From: Nitrospirota bacterium
GTDB lineage: Bacteria; Nitrospirota; Nitrospiria; JACQBW01
Length of the DNA stretch: 64,000 bases
Direction: 5' to 3'
NCBI GenBank assembly: GCA_016194305.1
Contig: JACQBW010000003.1
Coordinates: 39,224-103,223, forward strand
In this document: positions 1,010 through 52,794 of the stretch, piece by piece
Layout: each line of letters begins with the position of its first letter
Position numbering within the stretch: the first letter of the stretch is position 1
Program-made: the position numbers and the translations under genes
The notes under the pieces: model-generated
The model's input: the letters and a program-made list of their open reading frames with translations, nothing else
What the model was told of the DNA's origin: nothing
Database searches by the model: none

Positions 1010-1077
1010 CCTAACTTCCTCAGATATTACTTAAGTTAAGAACATCCGATTGCTAAGCAATCGAAAGGAGAAATAAT

Positions 1078-1791: not shown

Positions 1792-1824
1792 AAGAAATAA
1801 AATTGGATTGCAGACGGAGTTGGT

Positions 1825-2925
1825 GTGAGAATCTTGCTTGTATCAGGATCCTTTCCTCCAATGAAATGCGGAGTGGGTCATTATACCTTCCATCTTGCCA
1901 ATGCATTAGCTAAGAGCGGAAAAGTCACTGTTGGAATATTGACAGGTCAGGCGGCAGGTTCTAGCACACGCGATGTTGATTTTGAAATCATTCCGATTGT
2001 TGAAACATGGAAATTGACAGAAGCTAGAAAAATATTAAAGAAAATTCAATCGTGGCATCCAGATGTTGTTCATGTTCAATTTCCGACTCAAGGTTATGGA
2101 AACAGGGTATTGCCTTGGATCTTGACCATTTTTTTGCAAATTAAAAAGTTTCCTATGGTCCAGACTTGGCATGAATACTATTTAAAGGGAGGGAAACGAA
2201 ATATTCTCAATGCTTTTACTTCCGGTGGTTTGATCGTAGTGAGACCAAAATATAAGGAGATGATGCCACGGTGGTACCGCAATCTTATAAAGCATAAGAT
2301 CTACAAATTTATTCCAAACGCATCTGCCATTCCGGCCGTTCAATTGATCGATGTGGAGAAGGAGGCCATACAAATGAGCTACGCTAGAAAAGGAAAATCC
2401 ATGATTGTCTACTTTGGTTTCGTTTTTCCTCATAAAGGAGTAGATACTTTATTTAAAGTGGCCAATCCCGAGAAACATCATCTTGTCTTCATTTGTGACC
2501 TAAAAGTTGGAGACTCTTATCAGGAGCGGCTTTTGGATACGATAAATAGTCCTCCATGGAAGGGGGCCGTCACTGTGACAGGATATTTATCAGATTCAGA
2601 GGTTGCTCGGATTTTAGCAGCGGCGGATGCCGTTGTACTCCCATTTCGCGAAGGTGCCGGAATATGGAATACTACAGTTCATGCGGCTGAAGCACAGGGC
2701 ACCTTTATTTTGACAACTTCTTGCGATAAGACCCGAGGTTACAATGAAACAGAAAATATCTACTATGCGTTGCCTAATGATATAACAGATATGCAAAAAG
2801 CCTTGGATCTATATAGTGGCAGAAAGCGACAAACATCAAAATCAACAAAAACAATAGATTGGAACTATATTAGTAATGAACATTATAATTTTTATCAGGC
2901 ATTATTAGATAGTAGTCATCCCTAG
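1825..2925 (+). CDS. GT4-family glycosyltransferase.
   Basis: The N-terminus 'MRILLVSGSFPPMKCGVGHYTFHLANAL' is a GT4 N-domain signature. A C-terminal EX7E-like region is present. Confidence 0.8.
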   Translation: MRILLVSGSFPPMKCGVGHYTFHLANALAKSGKVTVGILTGQAAGSSTRDVDFEIIPIVETWKLTEARKILKKIQSWHPDVVHVQFPTQGYGNRVLPWILTIFLQIKKFPMVQTWHEYYLKGGKRNILNAFTSGGLIVVRPKYKEMMPRWYRNLIKHKIYKFIPNASAIPAVQLIDVEKEAIQMSYARKGKSMIVYFGFVFPHKGVDTLFKVANPEKHHLVFICDLKVGDSYQERLLDTINSPPWKGAVTVTGYLSDSEVARILAAADAVVLPFREGAGIWNTTVHAAEAQGTFILTTSCDKTRGYNETENIYYALPNDITDMQKALDLYSGRKRQTSKSTKTIDWNYISNEHYNFYQALLDSSHP

Positions 2926-2932
2926 GCTAAAT

Positions 2933-3955
2933 ATGACGCAAATAAAACTTTCGATTTGCATACCTACCTATAATTTTGGAAATTTTATAGGCGAAACGCT
3001 TTCCTCTATTTTAGGACAAGTCAGTCAATATGTTGAGATTGTTGTTTTAGATGGAGGATCTACAGATAATACTCAAGAAGTAATTCAAGAATTTAAAAAT
3101 CAATACCCTGAAATTCACTACATTCGATTCGATAAAAAGGGAGGCATAGATAAAGATCTATCTTTGTGCGTTGAGAATGCGAGAGGAGAATATTGCTGGT
3201 TAGTGTCAAGTGACGACATAGTCGAAACCGGAGCGATTTTAAGAATGCTCAATGAAATTGAGAGCGGACATGATGTCTATTTATGCAATAGATTGGAATG
3301 TGACATTAATCTCGTTCCCTATAGAAAGCGTCCTTGGTTATCCAATGGGATCGAAGACAGAATATTTGATTTTTCAAACGATACGGAATTAGCTAGTTAT
3401 TTGGATGGATCCCAATCATTAGGAGCGCTTTTTAGTTATATGAGTTCAATCGTGGTAAATCGAAATAAATGGACAAGAGTGGGTTATAACGAGTTGTTTA
3501 CGGGGAGTAATTACGCCCATGTCTTCAGGCTTTTTGAAATATTAAGAACTGGCGGCATTTTAAAATATATCAAAGATTCGCTCGTTAAATGCAGAACCGG
3601 AAACGATAGCTTTTTGGATCGTGGGATAATTCATCGATTTTTGATCGACTTAAAAGGGTATCAACTTTTGGCAGATGAATTATTTAATGCCAATCCTGTT
3701 TTGAAAAAGCAATTCATGTCAGTCATGCAACGTCAACATGCCTGGTACGGATTAATTCGCTTAAGGAGCGAGAATTCGAAAGCGGATCTATGGGGAGATT
3801 TAGAGAGAAGATTTCTTATTTTTGGTTATTCTAAGAAAAAACTGTCCATAATTAGAATTTTGGGATCCTATAGAATCGTTACTTTTTTTCTTCCTGTTAT
3901 AAAGAAAATAGTTAATATTAAAAGAAAACTGATTTTTGATATTAGTGGGGGATAA
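2933..3955 (+). CDS. GT2-family glycosyltransferase.
   Basis: 'LSICIPTYNFGNFIGETLSSILGQ...VEIVVLDGGSTDNT' is a GT-A fold with a DxD-type motif. Confidence 0.8.
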   Translation: MTQIKLSICIPTYNFGNFIGETLSSILGQVSQYVEIVVLDGGSTDNTQEVIQEFKNQYPEIHYIRFDKKGGIDKDLSLCVENARGEYCWLVSSDDIVETGAILRMLNEIESGHDVYLCNRLECDINLVPYRKRPWLSNGIEDRIFDFSNDTELASYLDGSQSLGALFSYMSSIVVNRNKWTRVGYNELFTGSNYAHVFRLFEILRTGGILKYIKDSLVKCRTGNDSFLDRGIIHRFLIDLKGYQLLADELFNANPVLKKQFMSVMQRQHAWYGLIRLRSENSKADLWGDLERRFLIFGYSKKKLSIIRILGSYRIVTFFLPVIKKIVNIKRKLIFDISGG

Positions 3956-3967
3956 GGAGAATACGCG

Positions 3968-5227
3968 ATGCATCTAATACACAGGAATACCTGTAGGGTT
4001 TGCGGAATGCCAACATTGACGAAAGTAATAGATTTGGGTGAACAGCACTTGCAGGGTTCTTTTATTAAATTAGGAAAAGAAACTCCTCCTAACAGAAAAA
4101 TACCGCTTGTTTTACTGCGTTGTGATCCGACGAAAAACGAAGGTGCGTGTGGACTACTTCAGCTGCAACATTCTGTCCCCCCCAAGATTCTTTATTCATC
4201 TTATTGGTACCGTTCAGGTACAAATCAAACGATGAGAGATCACTTGAAAGACATTTCCTACGAAGCGGCAACCCTGATCAATAAAAAGGACGCTCTGGTA
4301 CTCGATATCGGATGTAATGACGGTACACTATTAAAGTTTTATCCGAAAACATATAAGAAATATGGCATCGATCCGTCTGATGTCGCTCAGGAAATTAGGG
4401 ACGATATCAATGTGATCCAGGATACATTTCCTTCTGATGAGCTGAATAAGGAATGTGAGGGGAAACATTTCGACATTATTACCTCAATTGCAATGTTTTA
4501 TGACCTGGAGGATCCGGTTTCATTTGTGAGAAATATTAAATCTTGTTTATCTAATGACGGTATATGGATTTTTGAAATGTCGTACATGCCCTCTATGTTA
4601 AAAATGAATTCGTATGACACGATTTGTCATGAACATTTGGAATATTACAGTCTGGCGGTTATCGAGAATATTTTAAAACGGGCTGAAATGAAAATGATAA
4701 AAGTGGATCTGAATGACATCAATGGCGGAAGTATTCGCTGTTACGCGACGCCAATAGGTAATTTCAAGTTTAAGAAAAATGAATATTTGCTAACTTTGGA
4801 AAGACTGCGCCAAGAGGAATTTGACCTGGAACTGGATACCGACAAACCCTACAAACATTTTCAAGAGAGGATAAACGTTCATCGGGAAGCACTTACTTTT
4901 CAGCTCAGAAAATTAAAGAGTGAGGGAAAAAAGATTCATGTTTACGGTGCATCAACCAAAGGAAACACTATATTACAGTGGTGTGGGATAAATAATGCGA
5001 TAATTGATTTTGCGGCAGATAGGAATCCAGATAAATATGGTGCAAAAACACTTGGAACCGAGATTCCTATAGTCAGTGAAGCTGATTCAAGAGCTTTGAA
5101 TCCAGACTATTATCTTGTATTGCCATGGCATTTTAAAAAGGAATTCTTGGAAAGGGAGAAAGAGAGCTTAGATAAGGGAATCGGAATGATTTTTCCATTA
5201 CCTGCTATTGAAATTGTGAAAAAATAA
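3968..5227 (+). CDS. SAM-dependent sugar C-methyltransferase-like protein, with a Zn-ribbon N-terminus, an MTase core and a C-methyltransferase C-terminal domain (TylCIII/NovU-like architecture).
   Basis: The N-terminus has 'CRVCGMPTLTKVIDLGEQHLQGSF' (Cys pair). The MTase motif 'LVLDIGCNDGTLL' is present. The long C-terminal domain is typical of NDP-hexose C-methyltransferases. Confidence 0.65.
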   Translation: MHLIHRNTCRVCGMPTLTKVIDLGEQHLQGSFIKLGKETPPNRKIPLVLLRCDPTKNEGACGLLQLQHSVPPKILYSSYWYRSGTNQTMRDHLKDISYEAATLINKKDALVLDIGCNDGTLLKFYPKTYKKYGIDPSDVAQEIRDDINVIQDTFPSDELNKECEGKHFDIITSIAMFYDLEDPVSFVRNIKSCLSNDGIWIFEMSYMPSMLKMNSYDTICHEHLEYYSLAVIENILKRAEMKMIKVDLNDINGGSIRCYATPIGNFKFKKNEYLLTLERLRQEEFDLELDTDKPYKHFQERINVHREALTFQLRKLKSEGKKIHVYGASTKGNTILQWCGINNAIIDFAADRNPDKYGAKTLGTEIPIVSEADSRALNPDYYLVLPWHFKKEFLEREKESLDKGIGMIFPLPAIEIVKK

Positions 5228-5378
5228 TGCTTTTCAAAATTTAGCGTTTTATTTTCGTAATCCGATATCTTTGCAGATACAGGGAATAAATTGGAATGTA
5301 TATTATCCGTTTTTTAAAGACTGAAATCATTCTTTTGATTTCCTTTTTGTTTCGATCTTCGCTCTTAGAATATAAAAG

Positions 5379-6467
5379 ATGAAAGAGTGTTTTATTAATG
5401 GTCGTTTTCTATCCAAACCGATAACTGGTGTTGAGCGATATGCTTATGAATTAGTCATTGCTTTGGATAAGCTATTGCAATCTGAAAAAATTGATCGAAA
5501 TGAGTATACCCTTACTATACTTACACCTAACGTTCCCAGCAGTGGCATAAAATTAAAATATATAAAAATAAGACAGGTTGGAAATTTTTCCGGGAATTTA
5601 TGGGAGCAAATTGAGCTGCCTTACTATTGTAAGGGCCAAGTATTATTTAATTTGTGTAATGCTGCTCCGCTATTTAAGAAAAAACAAGTGGTAACTATAC
5701 ATGACGCATCCGTTTTTGCCAATCAGGACACTTATTCTTTGAAGTTTAGGATATGGTATCAATTTCTTCTTAGGTCAATTGTTAAATGGTCTGCAGCTGT
5801 CATCACGGATTCGTTGTTTTCAAAAGATGAATTGATGAAATATTGTGGTGTCCCCAGAGAGAAAGTCCATGATATTTCACTGGGCGTCGATCACATTCTT
5901 TCTTTTAAATCGGATCACAGCATTCTTAGAAAATGGAATCTCGTAGAAAGCAGGTATATTTTGGCAGTTGGAAGTTCAAGCCCTAATAAAAATTTTGAAT
6001 CGTTAGTAAAGGCCGCAAAGCTGCTAAATCTAAACGATATACCTATAGTTATAGCGGGAGGAACAAATGATAAGATATTTAATAATCAAAAAACAGATTA
6101 TGCAATGAGTTGTATTCATGTTGGCTATGTAACGGATGGTGAGTTGAGATCTCTTTATGAACATGCCCTTTGTTTTGTATTTCCATCGCTTTACGAAGGG
6201 TTCGGATTGCCTCCATTGGAAGCAATGATGTGTGGATGTCCCGTAATCACCTCCAACGTCTCATCACTACCTGAAGTATGTCAAAATGGTGTTTTATATT
6301 GTGATCCGAACGATCTTAAGGATATTTCTGAGAAAATTTCGTCTGTTATTAAAGATGACGAATTAAGATCAAACCTAGTGGAACTCGGATTAATTCAATC
6401 AAAACAATATACCTGGGAATTATGTGGATTGAAGACGTTCGAAATATTAAGAGAAGTGATTAATTGA
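5379..6467 (+). CDS. GT4-family glycosyltransferase.
   Basis: The C-terminus has 'EGFGLPPLEAMMCGCPVITSNVSSLPEV' (EX7E motif). Confidence 0.8.
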   Translation: MKECFINGRFLSKPITGVERYAYELVIALDKLLQSEKIDRNEYTLTILTPNVPSSGIKLKYIKIRQVGNFSGNLWEQIELPYYCKGQVLFNLCNAAPLFKKKQVVTIHDASVFANQDTYSLKFRIWYQFLLRSIVKWSAAVITDSLFSKDELMKYCGVPREKVHDISLGVDHILSFKSDHSILRKWNLVESRYILAVGSSSPNKNFESLVKAAKLLNLNDIPIVIAGGTNDKIFNNQKTDYAMSCIHVGYVTDGELRSLYEHALCFVFPSLYEGFGLPPLEAMMCGCPVITSNVSSLPEVCQNGVLYCDPNDLKDISEKISSVIKDDELRSNLVELGLIQSKQYTWELCGLKTFEILREVIN

Positions 6468-7582
6468 AAGTAGCGCTTGTCCATGACTATTTAAATCAGT
6501 TCGGCGGAGCTGAACGGGTTGTTGAGATTCTTCACGAAATGTTTCCAGATGCACCTATATTTACCTCTTTTTTTATTCCGGAAGATTTGCCTTCCGTATT
6601 TACCAAGCTGGATATTCGGGAATCGCTTATGCGGTATTTACCTTTCCTGAAACGGCATTTTAAGAAATATCTTTTGTTATACCCTAAAGCATTTGAAAGT
6701 TTCGACTTGGAGGGGTATGATCTTATTTTGAGCAGTAGCAGCGCATTTGCCAAGGGGATTATTATACCGAAAAATGCCCTGCATATCTGCTATTGCTACA
6801 CCCCAATGAGATTTGTCTGGGACTATCATTCTTATATTGAAAAAGAAAAAATTGGTTCAACAATAAAAATGTTCTTGCCCTTCGCTATTCGCTATTTAAA
6901 GAAATGGGATCTTGCTTCCGTGAGAAATGTTCACCATTTCATTGCCATATCGGACCATATAAGAAAAAGAATAAGGAGATGCTATCAAATTGAATCAGAG
7001 ATAATTTATCCGCCAGTAAATACTTCTAGTTTTGAGCTGGGAGACGATCAAGAAAGCTATTTTCTGATCGTTTCGAGATTAAATGCTTATAAGAGTATTG
7101 ACATCGTAATCGAGGCATTCAACCAATTGGGACTCCCCCTGGTTATTGCAGGAGGCGGTCCTCAGAAAGAGGCATTAGAATCTATATCCAAACCGAACAT
7201 CACTTTTCTCGGAAAGGTGTCAGAAGAAAGGTTGAAAGATCTTTATCGTAAATCCAAGGCCTTTATATTTCCCGGTGAGGAGGACTTCGGAATGGCTCCT
7301 GTCGAGTCCATGGCATCTGGCCGTCCCGTCATTGCTTTCGGAAAAGGGGGAGCACTTGAAACTATCATAGATGGAAAGACAGGAATTTTTTTTCAGGAAC
7401 AAAATTCGGAATCAGTGATTGACGCAGTAAAACGATTTCATAAGATTTCATTTAACTCAATTGACATCAGAAAACATGCCAAGGCATTTGATAGCGCCCA
7501 ATTTAGAGAGAGGATGAAGCAATTTATTAAAAACAAATACGATGCCTTTCAATCGGAATTAAAAAGCTCCTCTTCCCCATAA
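6464..7582 (+). CDS. GT4-family glycosyltransferase.
   Basis: 'FPGEEDFGMAPVESMASGRPVIAFGKGGALETI' is present. Its start overlaps the stop of the upstream GT by 4 nt. Confidence 0.8.
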   Translation: MKVALVHDYLNQFGGAERVVEILHEMFPDAPIFTSFFIPEDLPSVFTKLDIRESLMRYLPFLKRHFKKYLLLYPKAFESFDLEGYDLILSSSSAFAKGIIIPKNALHICYCYTPMRFVWDYHSYIEKEKIGSTIKMFLPFAIRYLKKWDLASVRNVHHFIAISDHIRKRIRRCYQIESEIIYPPVNTSSFELGDDQESYFLIVSRLNAYKSIDIVIEAFNQLGLPLVIAGGGPQKEALESISKPNITFLGKVSEERLKDLYRKSKAFIFPGEEDFGMAPVESMASGRPVIAFGKGGALETIIDGKTGIFFQEQNSESVIDAVKRFHKISFNSIDIRKHAKAFDSAQFRERMKQFIKNKYDAFQSELKSSSSP

Positions 7583-8980
7583 CACAACAGGAATCGTTTT
7601 CAAAAATATCTCCATATCCAGTTTTAACGACCAGTTATCTATATATTTTAGATCTAGATTCATCCATTCTTCAAAATTGATGTTTCTATTTCTGCCGCTG
7701 ATTTGCCAGAGGCAGGTGATTCCCGGTTTCATTGAAAGCTTTCTTTTCTGCCATCTTTTGTAATGAGCCACTTCCTCCGGTAGGGGAGGACGAGGTCCCA
7801 CCAGGCTCATTTCACCCACAAGGACATTCCAAAATTGGGGAATTTCGTCCAGACTCGTTTTTCTTAACCATTTTCCCATCGAAGTAATTCGGGGATCATT
7901 TTTAATTTTAAAAACAGGGCCGTCCATTTCATTTAACACTGCGAGATCTCTCTTCTGTTCTTCTGCGTTGATGACCATTGACCTGAACTTATAAAGCCCG
8001 AAGTGGCGCCCGTTTCTTCCTACTCTTATTTGTTTGAAAAATACTGGACCGGGCGACGAGATCTTTATTAAAAAAACAATGATTCCATATATTGGAATCA
8101 GCGCAACAATTAGGAAAGTGGATACTATCACATCCATGATACGTTTAATGAGTAACAGAAATTCGTTATAAGGTACCGTTGAAAAAGTGAGGAGAGGAAT
8201 GCCATGGAGATCCTCGAGATGCACTTTTGCGATCATGTGGGGAAAGAAATTAACCGCGACTCTGGCGTTAATTCCTTCTTCCTCGCAAATTAGAAACGAC
8301 TCTTCCAGGTTCTCGAGCCTTTTCCTTGACACAGCAAATACCACTTCATCAATGACATGTTGATCAATAATCTTAGTCAGATCCTCAACAAGTCCAAGAA
8401 CAGGAAGTCCCATTATCTTTGTAAAGCGAGCTGATGGAATATCTGAAACGAAGCCAATAAATTTCAATCCCCAGTGTCCATTTCTTTCTATGCTTTTAGC
8501 AATTTCTCGAGCTCTTTTTCCGGTACCAACAATAACGATCGCTCTAAAATTAAAACCCTTCTTGCGAACAATTCTAGCGATTTCACGTATTAGGATACGA
8601 GCCATAGATAATAATAGAAACGAAAAAAATCCGAATGTTAAGATGAGAAAGCGACTTGCTGAATGGGCTCTAATGGCAAATACGAGAAACCCAATAAATA
8701 GAGTTCCTATCGCTGAAGTAATAAAAATTAACCTAATTTCATGCAATAGAGTGCGGGTTCGCTGAGACTCGTAAAGGCGGGAAAAATAAAAGAGTAAAGA
8801 CCATACCGGTAAAATAATAAGCAACAACCACGTTTGATTATAAAAAGGATCTGTAATGCCAATTGTTTTTATGAACGAAGAATTTCTAAAGAGGTAAGAT
8901 AGATAGAAACTCAGAAGAAGAATGGTTTGATCCAAAAAATAAAGCAAGAAAGATACAAGGCGAGTTTTTTGTCGCAGCAT
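7559..8980 (-). CDS. Polyprenyl-phosphate sugar phosphotransferase (WbaP/WcaJ-type priming glycosyltransferase).
   Basis: The N-terminus has four to five TM helices. The conserved C-terminal domain is 'PGPVFFKQIRVGRNGRHFGLYKFRSMV...DEIPQFWNVLVGEMSLVGPRP'. Confidence 0.85.
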   Translation of the reverse strand: MLRQKTRLVSFLLYFLDQTILLLSFYLSYLFRNSSFIKTIGITDPFYNQTWLLLIILPVWSLLFYFSRLYESQRTRTLLHEIRLIFITSAIGTLFIGFLVFAIRAHSASRFLILTFGFFSFLLLSMARILIREIARIVRKKGFNFRAIVIVGTGKRAREIAKSIERNGHWGLKFIGFVSDIPSARFTKIMGLPVLGLVEDLTKIIDQHVIDEVVFAVSRKRLENLEESFLICEEEGINARVAVNFFPHMIAKVHLEDLHGIPLLTFSTVPYNEFLLLIKRIMDVIVSTFLIVALIPIYGIIVFLIKISSPGPVFFKQIRVGRNGRHFGLYKFRSMVINAEEQKRDLAVLNEMDGPVFKIKNDPRITSMGKWLRKTSLDEIPQFWNVLVGEMSLVGPRPPLPEEVAHYKRWQKRKLSMKPGITCLWQISGRNRNINFEEWMNLDLKYIDNWSLKLDMEIFLKTIPVVLWGRGAF

Positions 8981-9173: not shown

Positions 9174-9221
9174 TTGACAGTTTACCATAAATATATTTTA
9201 TGTTAGTGACAAAAATTGTCA
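9174..9221 (+). promoter_or_regulatory. Upstream control region of the tad locus. It holds a TTGACA -35-like hexamer (9174-9179) and a perfect palindrome TGACAA-AAA-TTGTCA (9207-9221), a candidate operator.
   Basis: Read directly from the sequence. The region lies in an AT-rich 480-nt gap upstream of flp. No clean -10 hexamer sits at 17-nt spacing, so the promoter call is weak. Confidence 0.3.
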
Positions 9222-9373
9222 ATTGAAATTATTATTTCTCTTCTTTAAAATAACTTCCAGTCACTCTTCGTTCATGATCTATCAATAAAATTTAACCTTC
9301 ACGCGTTACGGAAGGGCCTTCTTTGTTCCGGATGTATTACAGAGGCGTCTTGAGAGATACACGAGGACAGGCC

Positions 9374-9502
9374 ATGTTCGAGTACCTTCTCCTTACTTTA
9401 TTTACTCTGGTTGCGATATATGGTTTGGAAATTTCATTTAAAGATATTTTGGCACCGGCATTCAAAAGGTTTACAGCCGTAGTCCGATGGCCAATACCTT
9501 AA
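9374..9502 (+). CDS. Small 42-aa hydrophobic ORF (MFEYLLLTLFTLVAIYGLEISFKDILAPAFKRFTAVVRWPIP). It may be a leaderless Flp-like peptide or a spurious ORF.
   Basis: GAGGA lies 6 nt upstream of the ATG. The N-terminus has EY at positions 3-4 followed by a hydrophobic helix, resembling a mature Flp N-terminus without a leader. The ORF was too short for the six-frame track. Confidence 0.2.
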   Translation: MFEYLLLTLFTLVAIYGLEISFKDILAPAFKRFTAVVRWPIP

Positions 9503-9519
9503 AATTAAAGGAGTACTTT

Positions 9520-9753
9520 ATGTTTAGAAAATTGGGTCAAAGAGGGCAGGGAATGACCGAATACATTATTATTCTGGCGATGGTCGCCGTCGGAGCAATT
9601 GTAGTTTTTAAACTGTTAGGCGCCGTCATTCGGGAAAAAGTTTCACAGGTGGGTACATCCATTTCAACCGGCAAACCTTCGGTCAAAGAAGGGAAGGAGA
9701 AAATGGACAATCCTGATAAGGGGCTGGACAATAAATTCTACGGCCGCGATTAA
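9520..9753 (+). CDS. flp: Flp-family type IVb pilin.
   Basis: The motif 'RGQG/MTEYIIILAMVAVGAIVVF' matches the Flp G/XXXXEY processing site followed by a hydrophobic stretch. AAGGAG lies 7 nt upstream of the ATG at 9520. The track ORF 9487 is an in-frame N-terminal extension. Confidence 0.8.
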   Translation: MFRKLGQRGQGMTEYIIILAMVAVGAIVVFKLLGAVIREKVSQVGTSISTGKPSVKEGKEKMDNPDKGLDNKFYGRD

Positions 9754-9819
9754 AGACCGACTGATGATAAAAGGCTAATTGCTGCGTTCTCGTCCCTCAG
9801 CCTCTTCAACGTACTTAAG

Positions 9820-10455
9820 ATGTACGCCTCAGTCGCCTTCGGAACTGTGGCCTTGCACTTAACCGTTTCTCATCAGTCAGATACGGGAATATCGATGTTT
9901 TTATCAGTGCAGAACAGAAAAGGTGCAGTTTTAGCAGAGTGGATCATTGTATTTCCCCTTCTTTTATTCCTTTTCCTCGGAATAGCTCAGCTTGGGTTTA
10001 TCATGAACGCCAAGAATACAGTTACTTACGCGGCCTATTCCACCGCCCGCGTTCTTCTTACAAGAGGCAATCCAGCCCATTTTGGACAGAATCTCGAAGA
10101 GGAAGGGAGAAAATCAGCAGCGCTTGTCTGTATCGGGATTACCGGTATGGAAAACGTCACTCCCTATCTGCCGTCATCCGATCCCGATATTATCCATATT
10201 GCCAGCCGATATGACCAGGACGAAAGGTCTCATGCCGATTTCTTACAGAGATACTCTGCGGCACTTGATAAAACGCGTCTTAATATCCTTGAAATTAGGG
10301 AAGTTAACGACTTAATTAAAGTAAAAGTTGAAGTATTATATGACTATGAGCTCGATTTTCCGATTGTAAACCAGTTCATTGCAAGAGTATTTTCTGAGTT
10401 TTCCAGGTATGGCTATCCTCACATTACCCTCCGATCGACCGTTTCCCTGGGATAA
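9820..10455 (+). CDS. TadE-like pseudopilin. The true start is possibly the ATG at 9895.
   Basis: 'KGAVLAEWIIVFPLLLFLFLGIAQLGFI' matches the TadE/G-like N-terminal motif. Confidence 0.65.
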   Translation: MYASVAFGTVALHLTVSHQSDTGISMFLSVQNRKGAVLAEWIIVFPLLLFLFLGIAQLGFIMNAKNTVTYAAYSTARVLLTRGNPAHFGQNLEEEGRKSAALVCIGITGMENVTPYLPSSDPDIIHIASRYDQDERSHADFLQRYSAALDKTRLNILEIREVNDLIKVKVEVLYDYELDFPIVNQFIARVFSEFSRYGYPHITLRSTVSLG

Positions 10456-10457
10456 TC

Positions 10458-11447
10458 ATGGAATGTGGCAATCAAAAAGGCTCCATCTTCATTTTTTCAC
10501 TTTTTACCATTTTGGTATTAACGGGATTTTTGGCGATCGTGGCAAATGGCGGATATCTCATCACCAACAAAATACAGATACAAAATGCAGTTGACTCCGC
10601 TGCCTACTCAGGTGCTGTTGTTCAGGCAAGAGGATTAAACACGCTTTCGGCTTTAAATCAAACACTCGCAAATGTGGATTCGGTTTATCAGAAAGCTCTT
10701 TTCGCCTGGACGTCGGCTGTCCTGGCAGACGAAGGAGAGCCTGAAGGTCCAGCTCAAACCTTTTGGCGATCGATCTACGAGAAACCCTTGAGGGCCATCT
10801 GTTCCCCTGAATATCTTCGAAAAATTTATTGTATCGAGTCGAGAATTGTCTCCCGATTTAATGATCGTGTTAGAAGTGAAAAATGCCATTCAGGTAATTT
10901 ATCTTCAGATCATAGAAGTGTCGTAGCAGGGGAGTCCGAATCAATGGGAATAGCAAATCTGGGTCCCCTTGAGGTGCAAAATCTCCCATTTGCTGATTTC
11001 AGTGCCTGGTCGATGAATTTTGATCAAGGGAGCAAAAAACCAGGACTTTCTGTAGAGATTAATTCCGAAAGTGCAAAACATTTGACTGGAGCCGGTGCGA
11101 ATGAGGTTTCAATCGGAATTGTCTGTGACATTCCGGCGCGGTGGGGTCTGAAACCGGACTTTAATAAGAGTCAATATGTATTGAGCAGCGCAACCACGCC
11201 GGAAAAACAGGGACTTTATTTTTCGTATTATTTCGGAAGCGGAAATAAGTCTTATGCGATAGCCAAGGCCAAGCCATTCAGGAAGAACATGACTAGTCTT
11301 GAACTTCTGACCAGCGATTGGAACGCGCGACTGGTACCAATCAATGCCTCGCGTGAAGATGAAGAAACCTTTCAAAGATTCAGACGATCCACGGAAGGAA
11401 AAGAGTTAGGGTTTCAACAAGTGCCGACCGGTCCTCTATTGCACTGA
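10458..11447 (+). CDS. TadG-like Flp pilus assembly protein.
   Basis: 'IFIFSLFTILVLTGFLAIVANGGYLITNKIQIQNAVDSAAYSGAV' matches the TadG N-terminal domain signature. Confidence 0.65.
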   Translation: MECGNQKGSIFIFSLFTILVLTGFLAIVANGGYLITNKIQIQNAVDSAAYSGAVVQARGLNTLSALNQTLANVDSVYQKALFAWTSAVLADEGEPEGPAQTFWRSIYEKPLRAICSPEYLRKIYCIESRIVSRFNDRVRSEKCHSGNLSSDHRSVVAGESESMGIANLGPLEVQNLPFADFSAWSMNFDQGSKKPGLSVEINSESAKHLTGAGANEVSIGIVCDIPARWGLKPDFNKSQYVLSSATTPEKQGLYFSYYFGSGNKSYAIAKAKPFRKNMTSLELLTSDWNARLVPINASREDEETFQRFRRSTEGKELGFQQVPTGPLLH

Positions 11448-11467
11448 TGTGATCGGTAAGAGGTGAG

Positions 11468-11917
11468 GTGTCTGGTGTGAGAATTAAAAGAGATTTTTGT
11501 AATGAGCGGGGAATTGCGACAACGGAGTTCATCATAGTGAATCTGGTCTTTGTCATCTTTCTTGCCGGTTTTATGTTAATCGGGAACACCATATTAGCTA
11601 AAATGAAATCTTTGATCCTGGTCCGGAACATTGCTTTTAACCAGAATGATGGACTTGAAGAGATGAATTCGATTCACCATTCGGACGTGATTCAAGCAAG
11701 TAAGACGCCGTCCATCCTGCTAGATCGATGTCTTCGGCCTTATTTTGGGGTAAAAAAATCTAGAATTATTTCAGAGGCTCAAACTGAAGTGTCTACTCCG
11801 TTCAATGACTGGATTCCCCACAGAATTATATCGGATCAATATCACCTGGCTACCGATACCTGGAAAGCCCAATCATCACTGGCGATCGGCGTCCTGGTGG
11901 CAAGTTGTTCTGATTAA
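11468..11917 (+). CDS. TadE-like pseudopilin.
   Basis: 'RGIATTEFIIVNLVFVIFLAGFMLIGNT' matches the TadE-like motif. Confidence 0.65.
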   Translation: MSGVRIKRDFCNERGIATTEFIIVNLVFVIFLAGFMLIGNTILAKMKSLILVRNIAFNQNDGLEEMNSIHHSDVIQASKTPSILLDRCLRPYFGVKKSRIISEAQTEVSTPFNDWIPHRIISDQYHLATDTWKAQSSLAIGVLVASCSD

Positions 11918-11945
11918 ATTAACAGTGAGTCCCTAGAATAAAACA

Positions 11946-12779
11946 ATGACGAATCCAACATTAAAAAGGCTGTTTCCTCTTATTGTTTCGATTGGTGCAG
12001 GACTCCTGGCCGTGGCACTCCTTCAGATTTATTTGAAAAAGGAACGAAACAAGATGGATGAAGCGGAAAAACTGTTCGCAGTAGCCATGATAAATACCGA
12101 CCTGCCGGCCGGGACCACAATTGAAGAATCGTTTTTTGAAAAAAAAGAAATCCCAAAGAAATATTTCCATGAAAAAGAGGTACTTTTTTCGGATCTTTCT
12201 CAAGTTATGGGACAGCCGCTTAGGTATCCGGTAAAAAATGGCGAGACGCTTCTCTGGACCGGTATTAGCGGAAAACGGGACAATGCACTATCAACCCTTC
12301 TGGAGAAAGGAAAACGAGCTCTGACGCTGGGAGTAGATGAAATTACTTCGGTCTCAGGGCTCATTCAGCCAGGTGATCACGTCGATATTTTAGGAACATT
12401 TTTTGTCGGGAGCCTTCAAAAAGAAGGTTTTTCTCTAAATCAGGGAGAGGCAACAGTCATGCTTCAGCAAAACGTTCTTGTTTTGGCGGTTGGAACGGAA
12501 CTTCATCTTCGAAAGAATGGAAATGGGGATGAAAACAACGGATACAGCGGGTTGACAGTGGCCGTGACTCCTGAAGAGGCCGGTCACTTGATTCTCGCTC
12601 AAAATCGAGGAAAACTGATGCTGATACTGCGCCATTTCGGGGACACTGAGGTAATTTCCGACATTCCCAGGGTGACCTACGATGAAATTCGATTGGGAAA
12701 GGAAGTTCGTTATCTCTCGAAGGAGCGGAATCAAAAAATTATTGAAATCCCGCTAGAGAATTCCAAGAAGAGAAAGTAG
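11946..12779 (+). CDS. cpaB: Flp pilus assembly protein CpaB/RcpC.
   Basis: There is an N-terminal TM helix, then a SAF-like domain and a C-terminal beta domain. Its position immediately before the secretin fits CpaB. Confidence 0.75.
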   Translation: MTNPTLKRLFPLIVSIGAGLLAVALLQIYLKKERNKMDEAEKLFAVAMINTDLPAGTTIEESFFEKKEIPKKYFHEKEVLFSDLSQVMGQPLRYPVKNGETLLWTGISGKRDNALSTLLEKGKRALTLGVDEITSVSGLIQPGDHVDILGTFFVGSLQKEGFSLNQGEATVMLQQNVLVLAVGTELHLRKNGNGDENNGYSGLTVAVTPEEAGHLILAQNRGKLMLILRHFGDTEVISDIPRVTYDEIRLGKEVRYLSKERNQKIIEIPLENSKKRK

Positions 12780-12788
12780 CGTTGCAAT

Positions 12789-13784
12789 ATGGGATATTTG
12801 ATCTCAGCGTTGGGCCTGACATTGTCCTGCATTCTGCTTCTCCTACATACAGGATTTGCGAAAGAGATTATTGAAATAGATCAGACTGCTCCGACATTGT
12901 CCTATATCCCAAAATCGGAATCGATCGAATCCGGAAAAGCGCTTGAGATATCGATTCAGGCAACTGACAATCAGAATGTAAAAAGGGTGACCCTCTTTTA
13001 TCGATTGATCAGCAACGGAGAATATCATTCCGCTGAAATGATCAGAACTGACCAAGATCATTATGCCTACGTTATTCCGGGCGATGAAATTTACGGAGAA
13101 AGACTTGAGTACTATTTTACTGCAGAAGATAACGCCGGGAATAGAACCATGAAAGGATTTTCTGCAACTCCTCTTTTATTGTACCTGGTTCCGGTTGGAA
13201 AAAATTCAAATAAGAAGATAGTCCCTGTCCAATCAGCTCGTCATTCCCTGGTTACTGCGTCGTATTCAAACAATGCGCTTGTATTCACATTTGGAGAGTC
13301 CTTGATTCGATTAGCCGATCAGGGCAATCAATTAAATGTACCGTCCTATTATTACGGTGCAGAAGGCCAATTTCCCTACAAATCGGGATTTGAATTCGAC
13401 ATTGGTTTAAACGGAACTCACTCTGACTCAATCAAAATGAATTGGGTGGTTTACCAGAACCAAAGCGGGACATTGTACGAATCTCTTGACACCTTTTCCG
13501 TTTACGCTGGTCAAAGATTTTGCCAAAAGGAAACATCATTTCTGATAGGGGTCAACTATCTGACCGCTCGAATCAACGATAGAAATCTCTTAAATTCCAG
13601 CGGATTTCGTATTACCCGATTTGCCGATGAAAATTATAATCAAACTGGAGCAATCCTTGGAATTGGTTGGCATTACCCGGTCTCCAGTCATTTCTATGTA
13701 GGCATTGATCCGAAACTTAATATCTATTTCACAGGTCAATTGAATAGTCTGAGTTTTCCTATCGAGATTCGCTATGAATTCTAG
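12789..13784 (+). CDS. Outer-membrane protein with a signal peptide, an N-terminal Ig-like domain and a C-terminal beta-barrel ending ...IRYEF.
   Basis: The signal peptide is 'MGYLISALGLTLSCILLLLHTGFA'. The N-domain has a 'YYFTAEDNAGN' Ig-like signature. The C-terminal half has alternating aromatic/hydrophobic residues and a terminal Phe (OMP sorting signal). It is embedded in the tad locus. Confidence 0.45.
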   Translation: MGYLISALGLTLSCILLLLHTGFAKEIIEIDQTAPTLSYIPKSESIESGKALEISIQATDNQNVKRVTLFYRLISNGEYHSAEMIRTDQDHYAYVIPGDEIYGERLEYYFTAEDNAGNRTMKGFSATPLLLYLVPVGKNSNKKIVPVQSARHSLVTASYSNNALVFTFGESLIRLADQGNQLNVPSYYYGAEGQFPYKSGFEFDIGLNGTHSDSIKMNWVVYQNQSGTLYESLDTFSVYAGQRFCQKETSFLIGVNYLTARINDRNLLNSSGFRITRFADENYNQTGAILGIGWHYPVSSHFYVGIDPKLNIYFTGQLNSLSFPIEIRYEF

Positions 13785-15024
13785 AAAGAAACCCCTTTTG
13801 TTCCTTACATTGTTATTGCTGGGAATATCCAGTTCTGCTTTCGGCGCGGATGTCACTCTCAGCCAGGGTGAAAAAGTTAAGATTCCTTTTGATAATCTCC
13901 AAAGAATTATTGTGGCCGACGAAAAGGTGATCCAAGTAACGGTTCAATATTCGGAAAAAAAGATTGAAATAACAGGATTGGAGGAGGGAGAAAGCGAGCT
14001 TTCGTTTTTGGCTCCAAGTGGAGGTAAGAAGACTCTATTGGTTGAAGTGTTGAAAAAGACAAAATCTTTTAGAAAAAAGGCTCAAAGAAAAGAGATAAAT
14101 CGGGAACCCAAATTTAGAGAAATCGAGACAGAAATTCGAAACCAGGCAAGAACGATCCCTTTTTCGGTTCAGGTTACGGAGGAAAACATTACTCTTAAAG
14201 GGGAAGTTTATGACAATGCTTCCAGATCTAATCTGGAGCACATTGCCTCCACATATGGGAAGAAAGTAGTAAATCTGGTCAATGTGGTTCGTCCTATGGT
14301 CGAAATGGATGTAAAAATCGTACAGGTTGATCAGGTCGAAGGAGACTCGTTCGGAGGTAATCTTTTAAAAAATCTCGGATTAACTACGGATATGGGTTTC
14401 GCAACCGACATTAAGCCGCATCTTTCACTTGCCACGCAAGTACAATCTTCCCTTAACCTGCTGGTTAATCATGGCAAGGCAAAAGTCCTTTCAGAGCCCC
14501 ACCTCTCTTGCAGAACCGGAGATCATGCCACCTTTCACTCGGGAGGTGAGATCGGATTCAGGGTTTCAGGAGTTGGACATTCGAGTGTTAAATTTAAGGA
14601 GTACGGTCTGATTCTTCAAATTGAACCTAATATAGTTGAACAGGGGAAGATAGAAAGCCACATCACTATTGAGATTAGTGCACCTACCAGTTCACCGACC
14701 TCATCTCAGGATATCGGGTTTACGAAATTTAACGCAGATTCCCATATCGTCAGCAGGCCGAATGAGACGATCATCATTGCAGGCCTTGCGGAGAATATTC
14801 AACATCATTTTCAGGAACAAACTCCTCTTCTAGGAAATATCCCGGTTTTAAGTCTCTTTTTCAGCGAAAAACAGGATCAACATTCACGGCGGGATCTTCT
14901 TATGATCGTCACTCCGACTTTTACGAAAGTCGAAAGAATTGAAGATTACGAACCTGCTTCTGTTATACAGAAAGAAGGTCTCGAAAAAGAAATAAATGGA
15001 GATATTTCGGAGATTGAACCCTGA
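13774..15024 (+). CDS. cpaC: Tad secretin CpaC/RcpA.
   Basis: There is a signal peptide. The N-terminal pilus-formation domain 'VTLSQGEKVKIPFDNLQRIIVADEKVIQVTV' is present. The C-terminal secretin domain has 'IIIAGLAEN...TPLLGNIPVLSLFFSEK...RRDLLMIVTP'. Confidence 0.85.
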   Translation: MNSRKKPLLFLTLLLLGISSSAFGADVTLSQGEKVKIPFDNLQRIIVADEKVIQVTVQYSEKKIEITGLEEGESELSFLAPSGGKKTLLVEVLKKTKSFRKKAQRKEINREPKFREIETEIRNQARTIPFSVQVTEENITLKGEVYDNASRSNLEHIASTYGKKVVNLVNVVRPMVEMDVKIVQVDQVEGDSFGGNLLKNLGLTTDMGFATDIKPHLSLATQVQSSLNLLVNHGKAKVLSEPHLSCRTGDHATFHSGGEIGFRVSGVGHSSVKFKEYGLILQIEPNIVEQGKIESHITIEISAPTSSPTSSQDIGFTKFNADSHIVSRPNETIIIAGLAENIQHHFQEQTPLLGNIPVLSLFFSEKQDQHSRRDLLMIVTPTFTKVERIEDYEPASVIQKEGLEKEINGDISEIEP

Positions 15025-16589
15025 TGCCCTATGTTCGAGTATTAAACCGTAGCGTCGAAATTCATAAAGACCCTTTTTTGATAGGAAGATCTCCTGACGG
15101 CGATTTGGTTCTGCCGGAAGCGTCTGTCTCCAGGAAACATGCCCAGATTATTGTCTTCAATGGAAAGTATTTTCTTGAAGATCTAAAAAGCAGATCAGGG
15201 ATAAAGATAAATGACCTTGTTGTTGCCAAGGGTGAATTGAGAGACGATGATCAAATTACGATCGGACCATTTAACCTCATTTTCTCCTTGCATTCTGAAA
15301 GCAGTTCCCCCAGACACGCGGAAGATGAAATTTATGCTTTAAAAAAAGAATTTCACAGGGAGTTGTTTAATCAGATTGATGTTAAAAAAATATCGCTGGA
15401 GTTCCATTCTGACGATGATATCAGAAAAATGACCAAATCGGCACTGGAAGTAATTATTCAAAATAATCAAGAGAGGATCCCAAAAAGTGTTGACGTTGAT
15501 CATTTTGTGAAAGAACTTATGGATGAAATACTGGGACTCGGACCCATAGAGCCCTTTCTGTCAGATCCCGAAATAACTGAGGTGATGGTCAATGGTTCAA
15601 ATCAGATTTATATCGAAAAAAAAGGGAAATTGATCCTGACAGGAAAGAGATTTATGGGAGACGAACAGGTTCGAACCGTCATTGAACGGATCGTTCATCC
15701 GATTGGCAGAAGAATCGATGAGAGCTCTCCAATGGTTGATGCGCGTTTAAGAGACGGCAGCAGAGTGAATGCCATTATCCCTCCGCTTTCCTTAAATGGT
15801 CCCATAATAACGATTCGAAAGTTTCCTCCCACTCAAATGGGGGAGGAACAATTAACCAAAAACGAATCGCTCACCAAGAAAATGTTAGAGTTTCTTAAGT
15901 TTTGCGTTTCCAACCGAATGAATATCTTGATTTCCGGTGGAACCGGATCAGGAAAGACGACACTATTAAATGTTTTGTCCGGATTCATTCCGTCCGGAGA
16001 ACGGATCGTCACGATTGAAGATTCTGCGGAGTTGAGGCTAGCTCAACCCCATGTGATATCTCTTGAGACCCGTCCAGCGAATATGGAAGGGAGGGGATTA
16101 ATAACGATCCGGGACCTTGTTCGAAACTCTCTTCGAATGCGTCCCGACAGAATCGTAATTGGTGAGTGTCGTGGCGGAGAAGCGTTTGATCTGCTTTCGG
16201 CAATGAATACCGGCCATGATGGATCCCTCTCCACCATTCACGCAAATTCCCCCCGCGATGCCCTTTCACGGTTTGAAACTCTAGTTTTAATGGCGGGCAT
16301 GGATCTTCCCTCTAGAGCAATTCGTCAGCAAATTGCCTCTGCGGTTCAAATTATTATTCAGCAATCCAGATTCTCAGACGGCTCAAGGAAAATAACCCAT
16401 ATTGTTGAAGTGACGGGAATGGAAGGAGAGACTTTTACACTGCAGGAAATATATCGCTATAAGCGGGAAGGGTGGCACGAAGATGGAAAGCTGAAAGGTC
16501 GATTTGAATCATCTTCATTAATGCCATTGCTTTGTACTCGCCTTCGAAATGAAGGACATCACATTCCGACTGAATGGTTTGAAAATTAA
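15024..16589 (+). CDS. cpaF: CpaF/TadA secretion ATPase with an N-terminal FHA domain.
   Basis: The FHA domain is 'FLIGRSPDGDLVLPEASVSRKHAQIIVFNGKYFLEDLKSRSGIKIND'. Walker A is 'ISGGTGSGKTTLLN'. Walker B, Asp and His boxes typical of the VirB11/CpaF family are present. Confidence 0.85.
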   Translation: MPYVRVLNRSVEIHKDPFLIGRSPDGDLVLPEASVSRKHAQIIVFNGKYFLEDLKSRSGIKINDLVVAKGELRDDDQITIGPFNLIFSLHSESSSPRHAEDEIYALKKEFHRELFNQIDVKKISLEFHSDDDIRKMTKSALEVIIQNNQERIPKSVDVDHFVKELMDEILGLGPIEPFLSDPEITEVMVNGSNQIYIEKKGKLILTGKRFMGDEQVRTVIERIVHPIGRRIDESSPMVDARLRDGSRVNAIIPPLSLNGPIITIRKFPPTQMGEEQLTKNESLTKKMLEFLKFCVSNRMNILISGGTGSGKTTLLNVLSGFIPSGERIVTIEDSAELRLAQPHVISLETRPANMEGRGLITIRDLVRNSLRMRPDRIVIGECRGGEAFDLLSAMNTGHDGSLSTIHANSPRDALSRFETLVLMAGMDLPSRAIRQQIASAVQIIIQQSRFSDGSRKITHIVEVTGMEGETFTLQEIYRYKREGWHEDGKLKGRFESSSLMPLLCTRLRNEGHHIPTEWFEN

Positions 16590-16597
16590 GTTCACTA

Positions 16598-17470
16598 TTA
16601 TCGAAATAAATAATCGAGTGCAATTCCAATAAATATAAAAGTTCCGAAGAGTCCATGGTTTTTAAAGAGTTTAAACGCAATTTCGGGAGCTGTATTTCTT
16701 TTTAGTTGGTAGACCTGAACAGAAATAAAGATTCCCGTGATCAACAGACTGATAAAATACAGCGTGTGCAAGTGAGCAAGAATGCCCGTCCACAAGAGAA
16801 ATAAGAGGAAAGAAATACAAGAAAGTCCGAACGCAAGCCAAACATATTGGCCAAACAAGATAGCCGTTGATTTCACACCGATCCTCATATCATCTTCCCT
16901 GTCCATTAAAGCGTATATCGTGTCATAGGCAAGAGACCAAAAAATGTTTGCGGTAAAGATCAATAGGGGAGTGAATTCGATCTTGTCCTTAACCGCCACC
17001 CACGCCATGATGACGCCCCAACCAAAACTGATTCCGAGTACCAGTTGGGGAGTTGAAATAATTCTCTTGGTAAAGGGGTAAACGATGGCAAGGAAAATTC
17101 CGATCACACTTAATAGAATCGTAAATGGGTTGAGCATCATGACCAGAAGAAAAGCGAGAACGGAGAGGATGGCAAACAGGATGACGCCTTCTTTTACAGT
17201 AACCTCGCCGCTTGCGATGGGTCTGGCCTTCGTTCTCTGAACCTGGGGATCAATTTTCCGGTCCGCAATATCATTGATCACACAACCTGCGCTTCGCATG
17301 AGAAAAGAGCCTATGGTAAAGATGGCAAGCAATTTGATGGAAGGCTTTCCGTCACTTGCAATCCAGAGCGACCAAAGCGTTGGCATTAATACGAGAACGG
17401 TGCCTACCGGCCGATCGAACCGAATGAGCCTCAGATACACGTTAAACTTGTGACGTGTGAGCCAGATCAA
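16598..17470 (-). CDS. ubiA: 4-hydroxybenzoate polyprenyltransferase.
   Basis: It carries the UbiA motifs 'NDIADRKID' and 'YDTIYALMDREDD'. It is polytopic. Confidence 0.85.
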   Translation of the reverse strand: MIWLTRHKFNVYLRLIRFDRPVGTVLVLMPTLWSLWIASDGKPSIKLLAIFTIGSFLMRSAGCVINDIADRKIDPQVQRTKARPIASGEVTVKEGVILFAILSVLAFLLVMMLNPFTILLSVIGIFLAIVYPFTKRIISTPQLVLGISFGWGVIMAWVAVKDKIEFTPLLIFTANIFWSLAYDTIYALMDREDDMRIGVKSTAILFGQYVWLAFGLSCISFLLFLLWTGILAHLHTLYFISLLITGIFISVQVYQLKRNTAPEIAFKLFKNHGLFGTFIFIGIALDYLFR

Positions 17471-17477
17471 ATTTAAA

Positions 17478-18122
17478 CTACAGGTTTAGGAGGCGAGGTG
17501 AAAACACCTCGTAAATCGAAGCGAGGAATTGTTGTGGAGAAGAAAGTCTGTAATGACGATACCATAGTGTCGTATCCACGGACACTTTGAATTCTCGCGA
17601 TAGGTCTCTGGATTGGATCGTGCCGAATCCAAGTTTATCTTTGACGGAAGGGATTTTCATTTTTTCAATTAATTCGCCGATGGAAAATATTTGCGATAGT
17701 AACGCTTCATGCACAGAAGGATTCAGGCTTTGTAGAGGGAGGAAAGAGCATGCATAGACCAGCTTTTCCCCTTCCTGACTGAGAATCCAGATCTCCCTTT
17801 GCAATCCCTTTTCAGGATCTTTAAGGTCAAGAAACCGAACGAGTTGAGGGTCGGCTTCATAGAGTCCCTGTCGGATCACGTCAATGTGGACTGGAGCGGT
17901 CAAAAGTGCTTGAAGTGTGGAGGTGAGGGTTCCGCCTCCCGTCAGAAAAATTCGGTGAAATGAGCTAATCGGTAAATGTTTTGAACCGTCTGCGAAAGAA
18001 GCGATACTCTCCCATTTTTCAGAATGGGGGAATTGAACAATTTGTTCCATTTTGATAGAATACAAAACGAGATATGGCATGTCAATGACTGATTGGTCGA
18101 CGAATTGAATCGGGGCTTTCAT
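17478..18122 (-). CDS. Chorismate lyase-like (UbiC/DUF98-type) protein.
   Basis: It sits immediately upstream of ubiA in the same orientation. Size and composition fit the chorismate-lyase fold. The call rests on family resemblance only. Confidence 0.45.
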   Translation of the reverse strand: MKAPIQFVDQSVIDMPYLVLYSIKMEQIVQFPHSEKWESIASFADGSKHLPISSFHRIFLTGGGTLTSTLQALLTAPVHIDVIRQGLYEADPQLVRFLDLKDPEKGLQREIWILSQEGEKLVYACSFLPLQSLNPSVHEALLSQIFSIGELIEKMKIPSVKDKLGFGTIQSRDLSREFKVSVDTTLWYRHYRLSSPQQFLASIYEVFSPRLLNL

Positions 18123-38271: not shown

Positions 38272-38660
38272 GCAAAAATCCTCCGAATTCAATTTGAAAT
38301 TTATGGGTGCAATTGTCAGGCCATCATATTGTCTTGAAAGATGATTCAGAAGATATTGATTTATAAGAGTTAATTTTTAAACGTTTTGGACCGAGACAAG
38401 ACTTTTCGTACGGTCGCACCAGAGTTAAAGTTCAAAAATGAACAAGTCAAATGCGGTACGAAAGCAAGGATGTCTTAATTAGATTGTTTCAAAAGAAAAA
38501 GTCCATTATACTCGGTTGAAAAAGAGTCTATTTCAATCCAGTCATCATTCGTATTTAACATAATATACCTTATCAGACGTTATGGGAATGGGATTTTTTA
38601 TTGAAAAGGTCTAAACGACCCATCTCGCTCCATCACATTAAAACATCTGTTTGAATTGCC

Positions 38661-52787: not shown

Positions 52788-52794
52788 AAGAAAC

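Follow-up and report, generated by a model that had tools for sequence, protein, structure and literature searches.

A conserved Tad/Flp pilus locus of the FHA-CpaF class without adjoining tadB and tadC in Nitrospirota

The DNA analyzed here is a 64,000-nucleotide stretch, referred to below as the window, of a Nitrospirota bacterium (assembly GCA_016194305.1, contig JACQBW010000003.1, positions 39,224 to 103,223 of the forward strand; coordinates are those of the window unless a comparison locus is named). At 9.3-16.6 kb, its + strand carries an operon-like cluster of nine open reading frames (ORFs) for a Tad/Flp pilus: two flp prepilins, TadE, a TadG-like protein, a TadE-like pseudopilin, CpaB/RcpC, an outer-membrane protein, a secretin and a CpaF motor ATPase fused to an FHA domain. 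This locus is a bona fide Tad/Flp (type IVc) module and belongs to the FHA-CpaF (Kil-like) class. It is truly unusual in one respect only, the lack of tadB and tadC (the genes of the inner-membrane platform), which extends across a Nitrospirota clade and is seen again in related loci. The locus is probably the pilin, periplasmic/outer-membrane and motor half of a split Tad machine, the platform and prepilin peptidase of which would be encoded elsewhere.

Gene content of the locus

The nine ORFs are closely packed, with intergenic spacing of -11 to +66 nucleotides (nt) in the ORF listing. The initial annotation had proposed flp, pseudopilin, cpaB, outer-membrane protein, secretin and FHA-cpaF genes in this region of the + strand, and the ORF listing and the Pfam and NCBIfam scans agree with it.

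The last gene (15024..16589, +) encodes the FHA-fused CpaF/TadA motor ATPase, in which the FHA domain spans residues 19-81 (PF00498, E = 4.8e-16) and the ATPase matches PF00437 (E = 4.5e-62). GenBank lists the identical protein as MBI3593480.1, on a 154,642-bp contig of a Nitrospirae/Nitrospirota metagenome-assembled genome (MAG), and there is a second, near-identical MAG (protein MBI1823067.1). All names on its best homologues are CpaF or TadA, and NCBI names the window protein TadA. The cpaC/rcpA secretin gene (13774..15024, +; 416 amino acids, aa) matches PF00263 (E = 6e-28; 98 bits versus 27.5) and PF13629 (E = 4e-6), with a weak match to BON. The periplasmic alignment protein CpaB/RcpC (11946..12779, +) is recognized by PF16976 (E = 1.5e-25) and by TIGR03177 (139 bits versus a cut-off of 71).

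Two prepilin genes head the locus. The first, flp1 (9323/9374..9502, +), encodes a short Flp-type prepilin with a leader ending in RG, a mature protein starting with QAMFEY and the C-terminus RWPIP; it is 54-60% identical to its orthologues in two related Nitrospirota loci (L083 and L092; comparison loci are given L numbers throughout). The second, flp2 (9520..9753, +), encodes the probable major Flp pilin (77 aa). The class-III prepilin motif G/XXXXEY is present in both ORFs (RG|QAMFEY and RG|QGMTEY), and neither is matched by the Pfam Flp_Fap model. The phmmer matches of flp2 are small ORFs heading tad loci, in 32 other loci, and the representative of its cluster is named 'Flp pilin' by JGI.

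Three genes for pilin-like proteins follow. The tadE pseudopilin gene (9820/9895..10455, +; the NCBI start is 9895, giving 186 aa) matches PF07811 (E = 4.3e-12), and its product has one N-terminal hydrophobic segment. The next gene (10458..11447, +) encodes a TadG-like minor pilin or tip protein (PF13400, E = 4.5e-8), with orthologues in L083 and L090. The third (11468/11477..11917, +) encodes a second TadE/TadF-like pseudopilin of 146-149 aa, whose N-terminus is of prepilin type (G|IATTEF) and which has a single transmembrane segment. It has no Pfam or NCBIfam match and was assigned by motif and position only; the same slot is occupied by a second PF07811 gene in L093. The peptidase-dependent leader is kept on all pilins.

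Parts absent from the window

Pfam scans covered all window ORFs of at least 150 aa except three (1074, 872 and 703 aa), which were covered by custom hidden Markov models (HMMs) only. The custom TadB and TadC HMMs were derived from the ORFs that lie 3' of cpaF in comparison loci, and PF00482 confirmed two of their seeds as T2SSF proteins. HMM or phmmer searches for TadB, TadC, TadV and TadZ were run on six-frame window ORFs of at least 40-50 aa.

No T2SSF, Peptidase_A24 or ParA-type TadZ protein was detected by Pfam in the 64 kb window, and the TadB and TadC HMMs returned nothing from the six-frame ORFs (best E-value 0.06). TadV/CpaA was likewise absent from the window by PF01478, TadV-HMM and phmmer, and the sole window match of the TadZ HMM is a plain response regulator (37750..38292), recognized through its REC domain. 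The initial claim that tadB, tadC, tadV and tadZ are not in the window is thus borne out. For tadD, named in the same claim, Pfam scans gave no TPR match in or beside the locus, and no search with a dedicated TadD model was made. The possibility had been raised that tad genes lie on the far side of the 5' flanking gene wbaP. The genes that the window carries 5' of wbaP encode nothing but glycosyltransferases, methyltransferases and one Wzy-like protein, so the absences stand.

None of the locus proteins is a polytopic membrane protein. They have no more than a single, N-terminal hydrophobic segment each, which excludes a cryptic platform or peptidase among them. Such a role was considered for the unannotated locus proteins and is ruled out, the 331-aa protein being a barrel and the 149-aa protein a pseudopilin.

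A lineage-specific outer-membrane protein

The 331-aa protein (12789..13784, +) is encoded between cpaB and the secretin gene. It is lineage-specific, with only five or six homologues among 5.8 billion proteins, and the three of these that carry a name are all from Nitrospirota. An AlphaFold (AF2) model calculated on the alignment of homologues has a mean predicted local distance difference test (pLDDT) score of 71.8, with values of 85-92 in the C-terminal barrel. In the model, a signal peptide is followed by an immunoglobulin (Ig)-like β-sandwich (residues 36-126), which a disordered linker joins to a β-barrel (residues 163-330) with the C-terminal sequence YEF. The top Foldseek matches of the model are the 8-stranded barrels Ail, OmpA, NspA and OmpX. 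The modeled fold identifies this protein as an outer-membrane accessory protein and not as a platform.

Conservation of the locus in Nitrospirota

The order of the genes is common to at least four further Nitrospirota lineages with CpaF identities of 61-70%. The internal order is the same in L083-L085 (70% CpaF identity) and in L090 (61%). Two other loci, L086 (70%) and L087 (67%; Nitrospiria GCA_054638995.1), continue from cpaF into convergent ubiA-ubiC, HU, MerR, SurE, VTT, CysS, SpoU, Ffh and GGDEF genes as in the window. A second contig of GCA_054638995.1 (L092) contains wbaP, an insertion sequence (IS) element, two flp genes, TadE, TadG, a 147-aa pseudopilin, RcpC and a 337-aa outer-membrane protein. 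No T2SSF gene lies beside cpaF in L086, L087, L089, L091 or L093.

The window belongs to a MAG, and misassembly or binning could have joined half of a tad operon to the convergent ubiA gene; a misassembly at 16.59 kb had been named as a concern from the start. The junction is genuine. The same gene order and the same cpaF-ubiA junction occur in two independent single-run Logan assemblies (SRR12113410 and SRR12113409, from a series of groundwater samples), and L086 and L087 share both the junction and the downstream synteny. Among GTDB genome contigs, an exact-pattern search gave no match to the window. The stop codons of cpaF and ubiA are only 8 nt apart, with no repeat or IS element between them; the convergence had been reported correctly, with a gap of 9 nt instead of 8. 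An artefact is rejected as having practically no chance of being the explanation, and the cpaF-ubiA junction is ancient and stable.

The most conserved protein of the region is Flp2. It is 87-88% identical between the window and its counterparts in L083 (4430-4660) and L092 (6790-7020), compared with 80-81% for Ffh, 67-70% for CpaF and 61-63% for CysS. A filament subunit more conserved than Ffh indicates very strong purifying selection, which argues that the pilus is made and works. This bears on the view that the locus is a decaying, non-functional remnant from which tadB and tadC were deleted. Such decay would account for an essential component class missing at the locus, but the nine ORFs remain intact throughout the lineages examined, over a CpaF identity range of 61-70%, and neither the constraint on Flp2 nor the age and stability of the junction fits a dying system. 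We consider decay extremely unlikely.

Comparison with other FHA-CpaF loci

A scan of the genome collection with CpaF yielded 80 GTDB loci (L003-L082), with full-length identities of up to about 57%. Those with adequate flanks (18 with an FHA-fused CpaF and 40 without the FHA domain) were classified using HMMs for FHA, TadZ, TadB/C and TadV. TadZ is missing from all 18 FHA-CpaF loci and from none of the 40 non-FHA loci (0/40). TadB/C is encoded directly 3' of cpaF in 14/18 and 35/40 loci, respectively, and no TadV is found within 10 kb in 13/18 and 12/40. FHA-fused CpaF and TadZ are therefore mutually exclusive in these 58 loci. The missing TadZ is a property of the class, and absence of TadV from the locus is commonplace in it. 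Five Bdellovibrionales loci (L008, L009, L012, L024 and L049) were found to encode TadZ-CpaF fusions of 716-754 aa, which match those described in Bdellovibrio (bioRxiv 10.64898/2026.07.08.737194) and thus validate the HMM method. The five absences had at first been treated as equally anomalous. Only tadB and tadC are truly unusual in being absent: TadZ is missing from every FHA-CpaF locus compared, a TadV gene is commonly not in the locus, and TadD is reported to be lacking in the Kil system as well.

The five nearest outgroup loci (L089, L091, L093, L094 and L096) have CpaF identities of 53-56%. The complete version of the locus is seen in L094, which encodes flp, A24, TadE, TadG, two unknown genes, RcpC, secretin, FHA-CpaF, two consecutive T2SSF proteins, DUF192, FHA proteins, a Ser/Thr kinase, PP2C and a second kinase. 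Extra FHA proteins or Ser/Thr kinase signaling genes are also present in L095, L096 and L029. Three of the five (L089, L091 and L093) stop at cpaF and continue into unrelated genes, with no adjoining tadB/C; of these, L093 belongs to a complete 3.4 Mb genome (CP070770.1, a Deltaproteobacteria MAG). In both L093 and L094 the pseudopilin genes precede rcpC. The order flp, pseudopilins, cpaB, secretin, cpaF thus represents the class norm, and the initial view of the pseudopilin position as atypical is not upheld. Three of five outgroups without adjoining tadB/C, one without a secretin, and the split of the Kil genes suggest that gene dispersal is frequent in the FHA-CpaF class.

The locus without a secretin, L096 (GCA_016189835.1, JACPRU010000033.1), retains TadB/C and carries three FHA-T2SSE ATPase paralogues in tandem. 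A separate observation concerns the Flp1-like mini-pilin with a C-terminal (W/L)PIP, which is found in the window clade, in L093 (6289-6441) and in L089 (7082-7240), the latter two ORFs ending in LPIP. Every locus with such a mini-pilin stops at cpaF without tadB/C, and the mini-pilin was not detected in L094.

A single origin of all loci lacking tadBC was examined with a neighbor-joining (NJ) tree of CpaF, in which Kil, Acidithiobacillus and the window clade do not come together and the deep nodes are weak or unresolved. Repeated independent splits are as likely as a single origin, and independent relocations are plausible.

The recurrence of such loci also bears on whether a Tad-like machine might operate with no T2SSF platform at all, or on one that is not homologous. 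The lack of an adjoining T2SSF in three of the five nearest outgroups, one of them a complete 3.4 Mb genome, and the gain of a new outer-membrane component by the window clade are in line with such a machine. However, an inner-membrane platform is among the key components common to the members of the type IV filament superfamily, the ancestor of which is inferred to have had one (PMC6668835); moreover, the locus encodes no polytopic membrane protein, and no unknown protein that could substitute for the platform was found to be common to the window, L089 and L093. This alternative has hardly any probability. A variant of it, very improbable in our judgment, holds that a conserved clade (the Nitrospirota lineage, perhaps with L089, L091 and L093) has dispensed with a dedicated TadB/TadC; FHA-CpaF would then act on a heterologous platform, such as PilC of type IVa pili (T4aP), or on none, and the Ig-plus-barrel protein would be part of a remodeled envelope conduit.

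A probable split Tad machine

The initial annotation left two options, a machine split across the genome or a different platform, and the evidence favors the split. The pilins, pseudopilins and motor are intact and constrained, and the locus offers no other membrane protein for the role; the simplest account is that tadB/tadC, together with an A24 peptidase or PilD, lie elsewhere in the genome. Dispersed Tad genes have precedents in Kil clusters 1 and 2 (PMC8460266) and in Bdellovibrio (bioRxiv 10.64898/2026.07.08.737194).

In a split machine, the two Flp prepilins and the three pseudopilins would first be inserted into the inner membrane. An A24 peptidase from elsewhere, either a loner TadV, which is permitted in the published Tad model (PMC6668835), or the T4aP PilD, would cut after the glycine of G/XXXXE(Y/F). 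Hexameric CpaF would then drive pilin polymerization on a platform of TadB and TadC, likewise encoded elsewhere, and the filament would pass through the CpaB ring and the secretin, which the OmpX-like Ig-domain protein probably assists or anchors. The N-terminal FHA domain may act in place of TadZ as a recruitment or regulatory input, probably reading Ser/Thr phosphorylation.

Several points weigh against a split. No tadB/tadC or A24 gene of the window genome (within the 64 kb window) or of close relatives was found. The best 120 phmmer matches of the L094 TadB include none with a Nitrospirota label, and ten NCBI matches are nameless. Ser/Thr kinases, PP2C and further FHA proteins were not detected in the window by Pfam scans. 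Tad systems are 'almost exclusively' encoded at a single locus according to Denise et al. (PMC6668835), so a split is rare a priori. Finally, MAGs may be incomplete, so even a negative search of a whole MAG would be weak evidence.

The locus could also be an accessory module, to which a second complete Tad or T4aP system lends its platform (TadB/C or PilC) and its peptidase, with no dedicated orphan tadBC operon. Nothing in the window argues against such borrowing, but we know of no documented case of a platform shared between distinct type IV filament systems. Prepilin peptidases are exchangeable between systems (PMC6668835), and Bdellovibrio both shares PilD between systems and has a duplicated rcpA-tadA module (bioRxiv 10.64898/2026.07.08.737194). 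That rcpA2-tadA2 duplicate is dispensable, whereas the pilins here are very strongly constrained, and, unlike the two-gene duplicate, the window locus owns a full pilin set, CpaB and a secretin. We regard an accessory module as unlikely and a split Tad machine with its own remote platform genes as the probable arrangement.

Locus boundaries and other features of the window

Promoter-like sites were found only 5' of flp1, the best of them in the 340-nt gap between wbaP and flp1. The putative operon promoter (9206..9251, +) consists of two overlapping sigma-70-like matches, each 10/12 and identified by consensus only. The promoter/terminator scan revealed no convincing + strand terminator within the locus, and no Rfam element or credible riboswitch or leader RNA was found in the leader upstream of flp.

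At the 5' boundary, outside the system, lies a gene for a wbaP-like sugar transferase (7559..8980, -; PF02397, E = 2e-69), which also neighbors the flp genes in L092. An IS element (DDE_3 transposase and HTH; L092 5455-6458) separates wbaP from flp in L092, and the matching intergenic region of the window holds the putative promoter. The wbaP-like gene belongs to a polysaccharide cluster (50..8980; O-antigen or exopolysaccharide) that encodes a Wzy-like protein, several GT1/GT2/GT4 glycosyltransferases and a C-methyltransferase. Its G+C content is 0.36-0.39, compared with 0.41-0.47 elsewhere in the window, which may reflect horizontal acquisition.

The 3' boundary, also outside the system, is ubiA (16598..17470, -; PF01040, E = 5e-67; TIGR01474 above cut-off). 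Together with a chorismate-lyase-like gene it occupies 16598..18122 (-) in this Nitrospirota MAG, and the pair is kept in L086 and L087. UbiA scores 325 bits against the TIGR01474 'ubiA_proteo' equivalog, with a cut-off of 275. By sequence similarity, the pair suggests 4-hydroxybenzoate prenylation, i.e. ubiquinone-type quinone synthesis, in this lineage.

Two further features lie at a distance from the locus. A PyrR-binding leader (RF00515; 52795..52932, -) scores 55.5 bits (gathering score 54) and lies upstream of a pyrR-like gene (52221..52796), after which come pyrB, pyrC, carA and a 1074-aa ORF (45529..48753), presumed to be carB and among those outside the Pfam scans. Two adjoining paralogous genes at 39383..41997 (-) encode radical-SAM methylthiotransferase-like proteins (UPF0004 and Radical_SAM), only one of which has a TRAM domain.

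Implications

The textbook Tad pilus is encoded at a single locus and is horizontally mobile (PMC6668835). The most useful general results here are the complete exclusivity of FHA and TadZ and the fluid gene organization of the class. They suggest that FHA-CpaF systems form a class in which the FHA domain stands in for TadZ, and that this class extends to non-predatory uncultured phyla such as Nitrospirota. They also frame the question of how control by Ser/Thr phosphorylation replaced control by polar landmarks in Tad machines. For annotation pipelines, the practical consequence is that TXSScan-type models would call the locus incomplete.

Comparison with known systems

Canonical Tad/Flp systems (Aggregatibacter tad, Caulobacter cpa and Pseudomonas aeruginosa tad/rcp) share with the window locus the G/XXXXEY Flp pilins, TadE/F/G pseudopilins, RcpC/CpaB, RcpA/CpaC and TadA/CpaF. 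In Aggregatibacter, rcpB lies 3' of rcpA. The window locus differs from the canonical systems in that it lacks TadZ/CpaE, TadB/C and TadV, with no TPR match for TadD in a comparison that included no dedicated TadD search, and in the FHA domain on its ATPase. Its pseudopilins precede cpaB, whereas the canonical ones follow tadC, and an OmpX-like protein is encoded between cpaB and the secretin.

The gene order is shared with the uncharacterized loci L093 and L089, in which flp, TadE, TadG and TadE genes are followed, after further genes, by RcpC, secretin and FHA-CpaF and then by unrelated genes, and which share the Flp1-like mini-pilin ending in PIP. They differ in having an A24 peptidase gene just before rcpC and no 331-aa outer-membrane protein, and their CpaF identity to the window is only 54%.

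Bdellovibrio bacteriovorus resembles the arrangement proposed for the window genome in its dispersed tad genes, with tadC apart from the main locus, and in having no dedicated TadV, PilD being shared (bioRxiv 10.64898/2026.07.08.737194). It differs in that TadZ is kept, fused to TadA, tadB is located beside the ATPase gene and there is no FHA domain.

The Kil system of Myxococcus xanthus (KilA-KilM) is encoded in two clusters; its single ATPase is fused to an FHA domain, and TadG, RcpB and TadD are reported as missing (Seef et al. 2021, PMC8460266); its two-cluster split was called 'a unique situation' at that time (PMC8460266). Like the window locus, Kil has an N-terminal FHA domain on a CpaF-type ATPase, no TadZ, and a secretin gene beside that of the ATPase. 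Its tad genes are not all in one locus, and the window locus, which lacks the platform, would be one half of a comparable division. Among the comparison loci, L029 (Citreicoccus) matches Kil cluster 1, with a multi-FHA protein encoded downstream and an ATPase that is 57% identical to the window CpaF and, by sequence, is likely the orthologue of KilF. The layout of Kil cluster 2 is found in L095 (Archangium violaceum); its TadB and the TadB of L094 share 44% identity.

The genes are grouped differently in the two systems. Kil cluster 1 comprises the peptidase, secretin, ATPase and FHA proteins, and cluster 2 comprises CpaB, the platform, the pilin and the pseudopilins, whereas the window locus keeps pilins, pseudopilins, CpaB, secretin and ATPase together, so that only the platform and the peptidase are missing. 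The window locus also has a TadG-like gene and the Ig-plus-barrel outer-membrane protein, but no extra FHA proteins or kinases nearby, and nothing in the window indicates a predatory host. On the weak NJ tree, the Kil ATPases fall outside the window clade. Compared with Kil, the Nitrospirota locus thus has its genes divided in another way and encodes a novel accessory protein of the outer membrane, which extends the known class without opening a new field.

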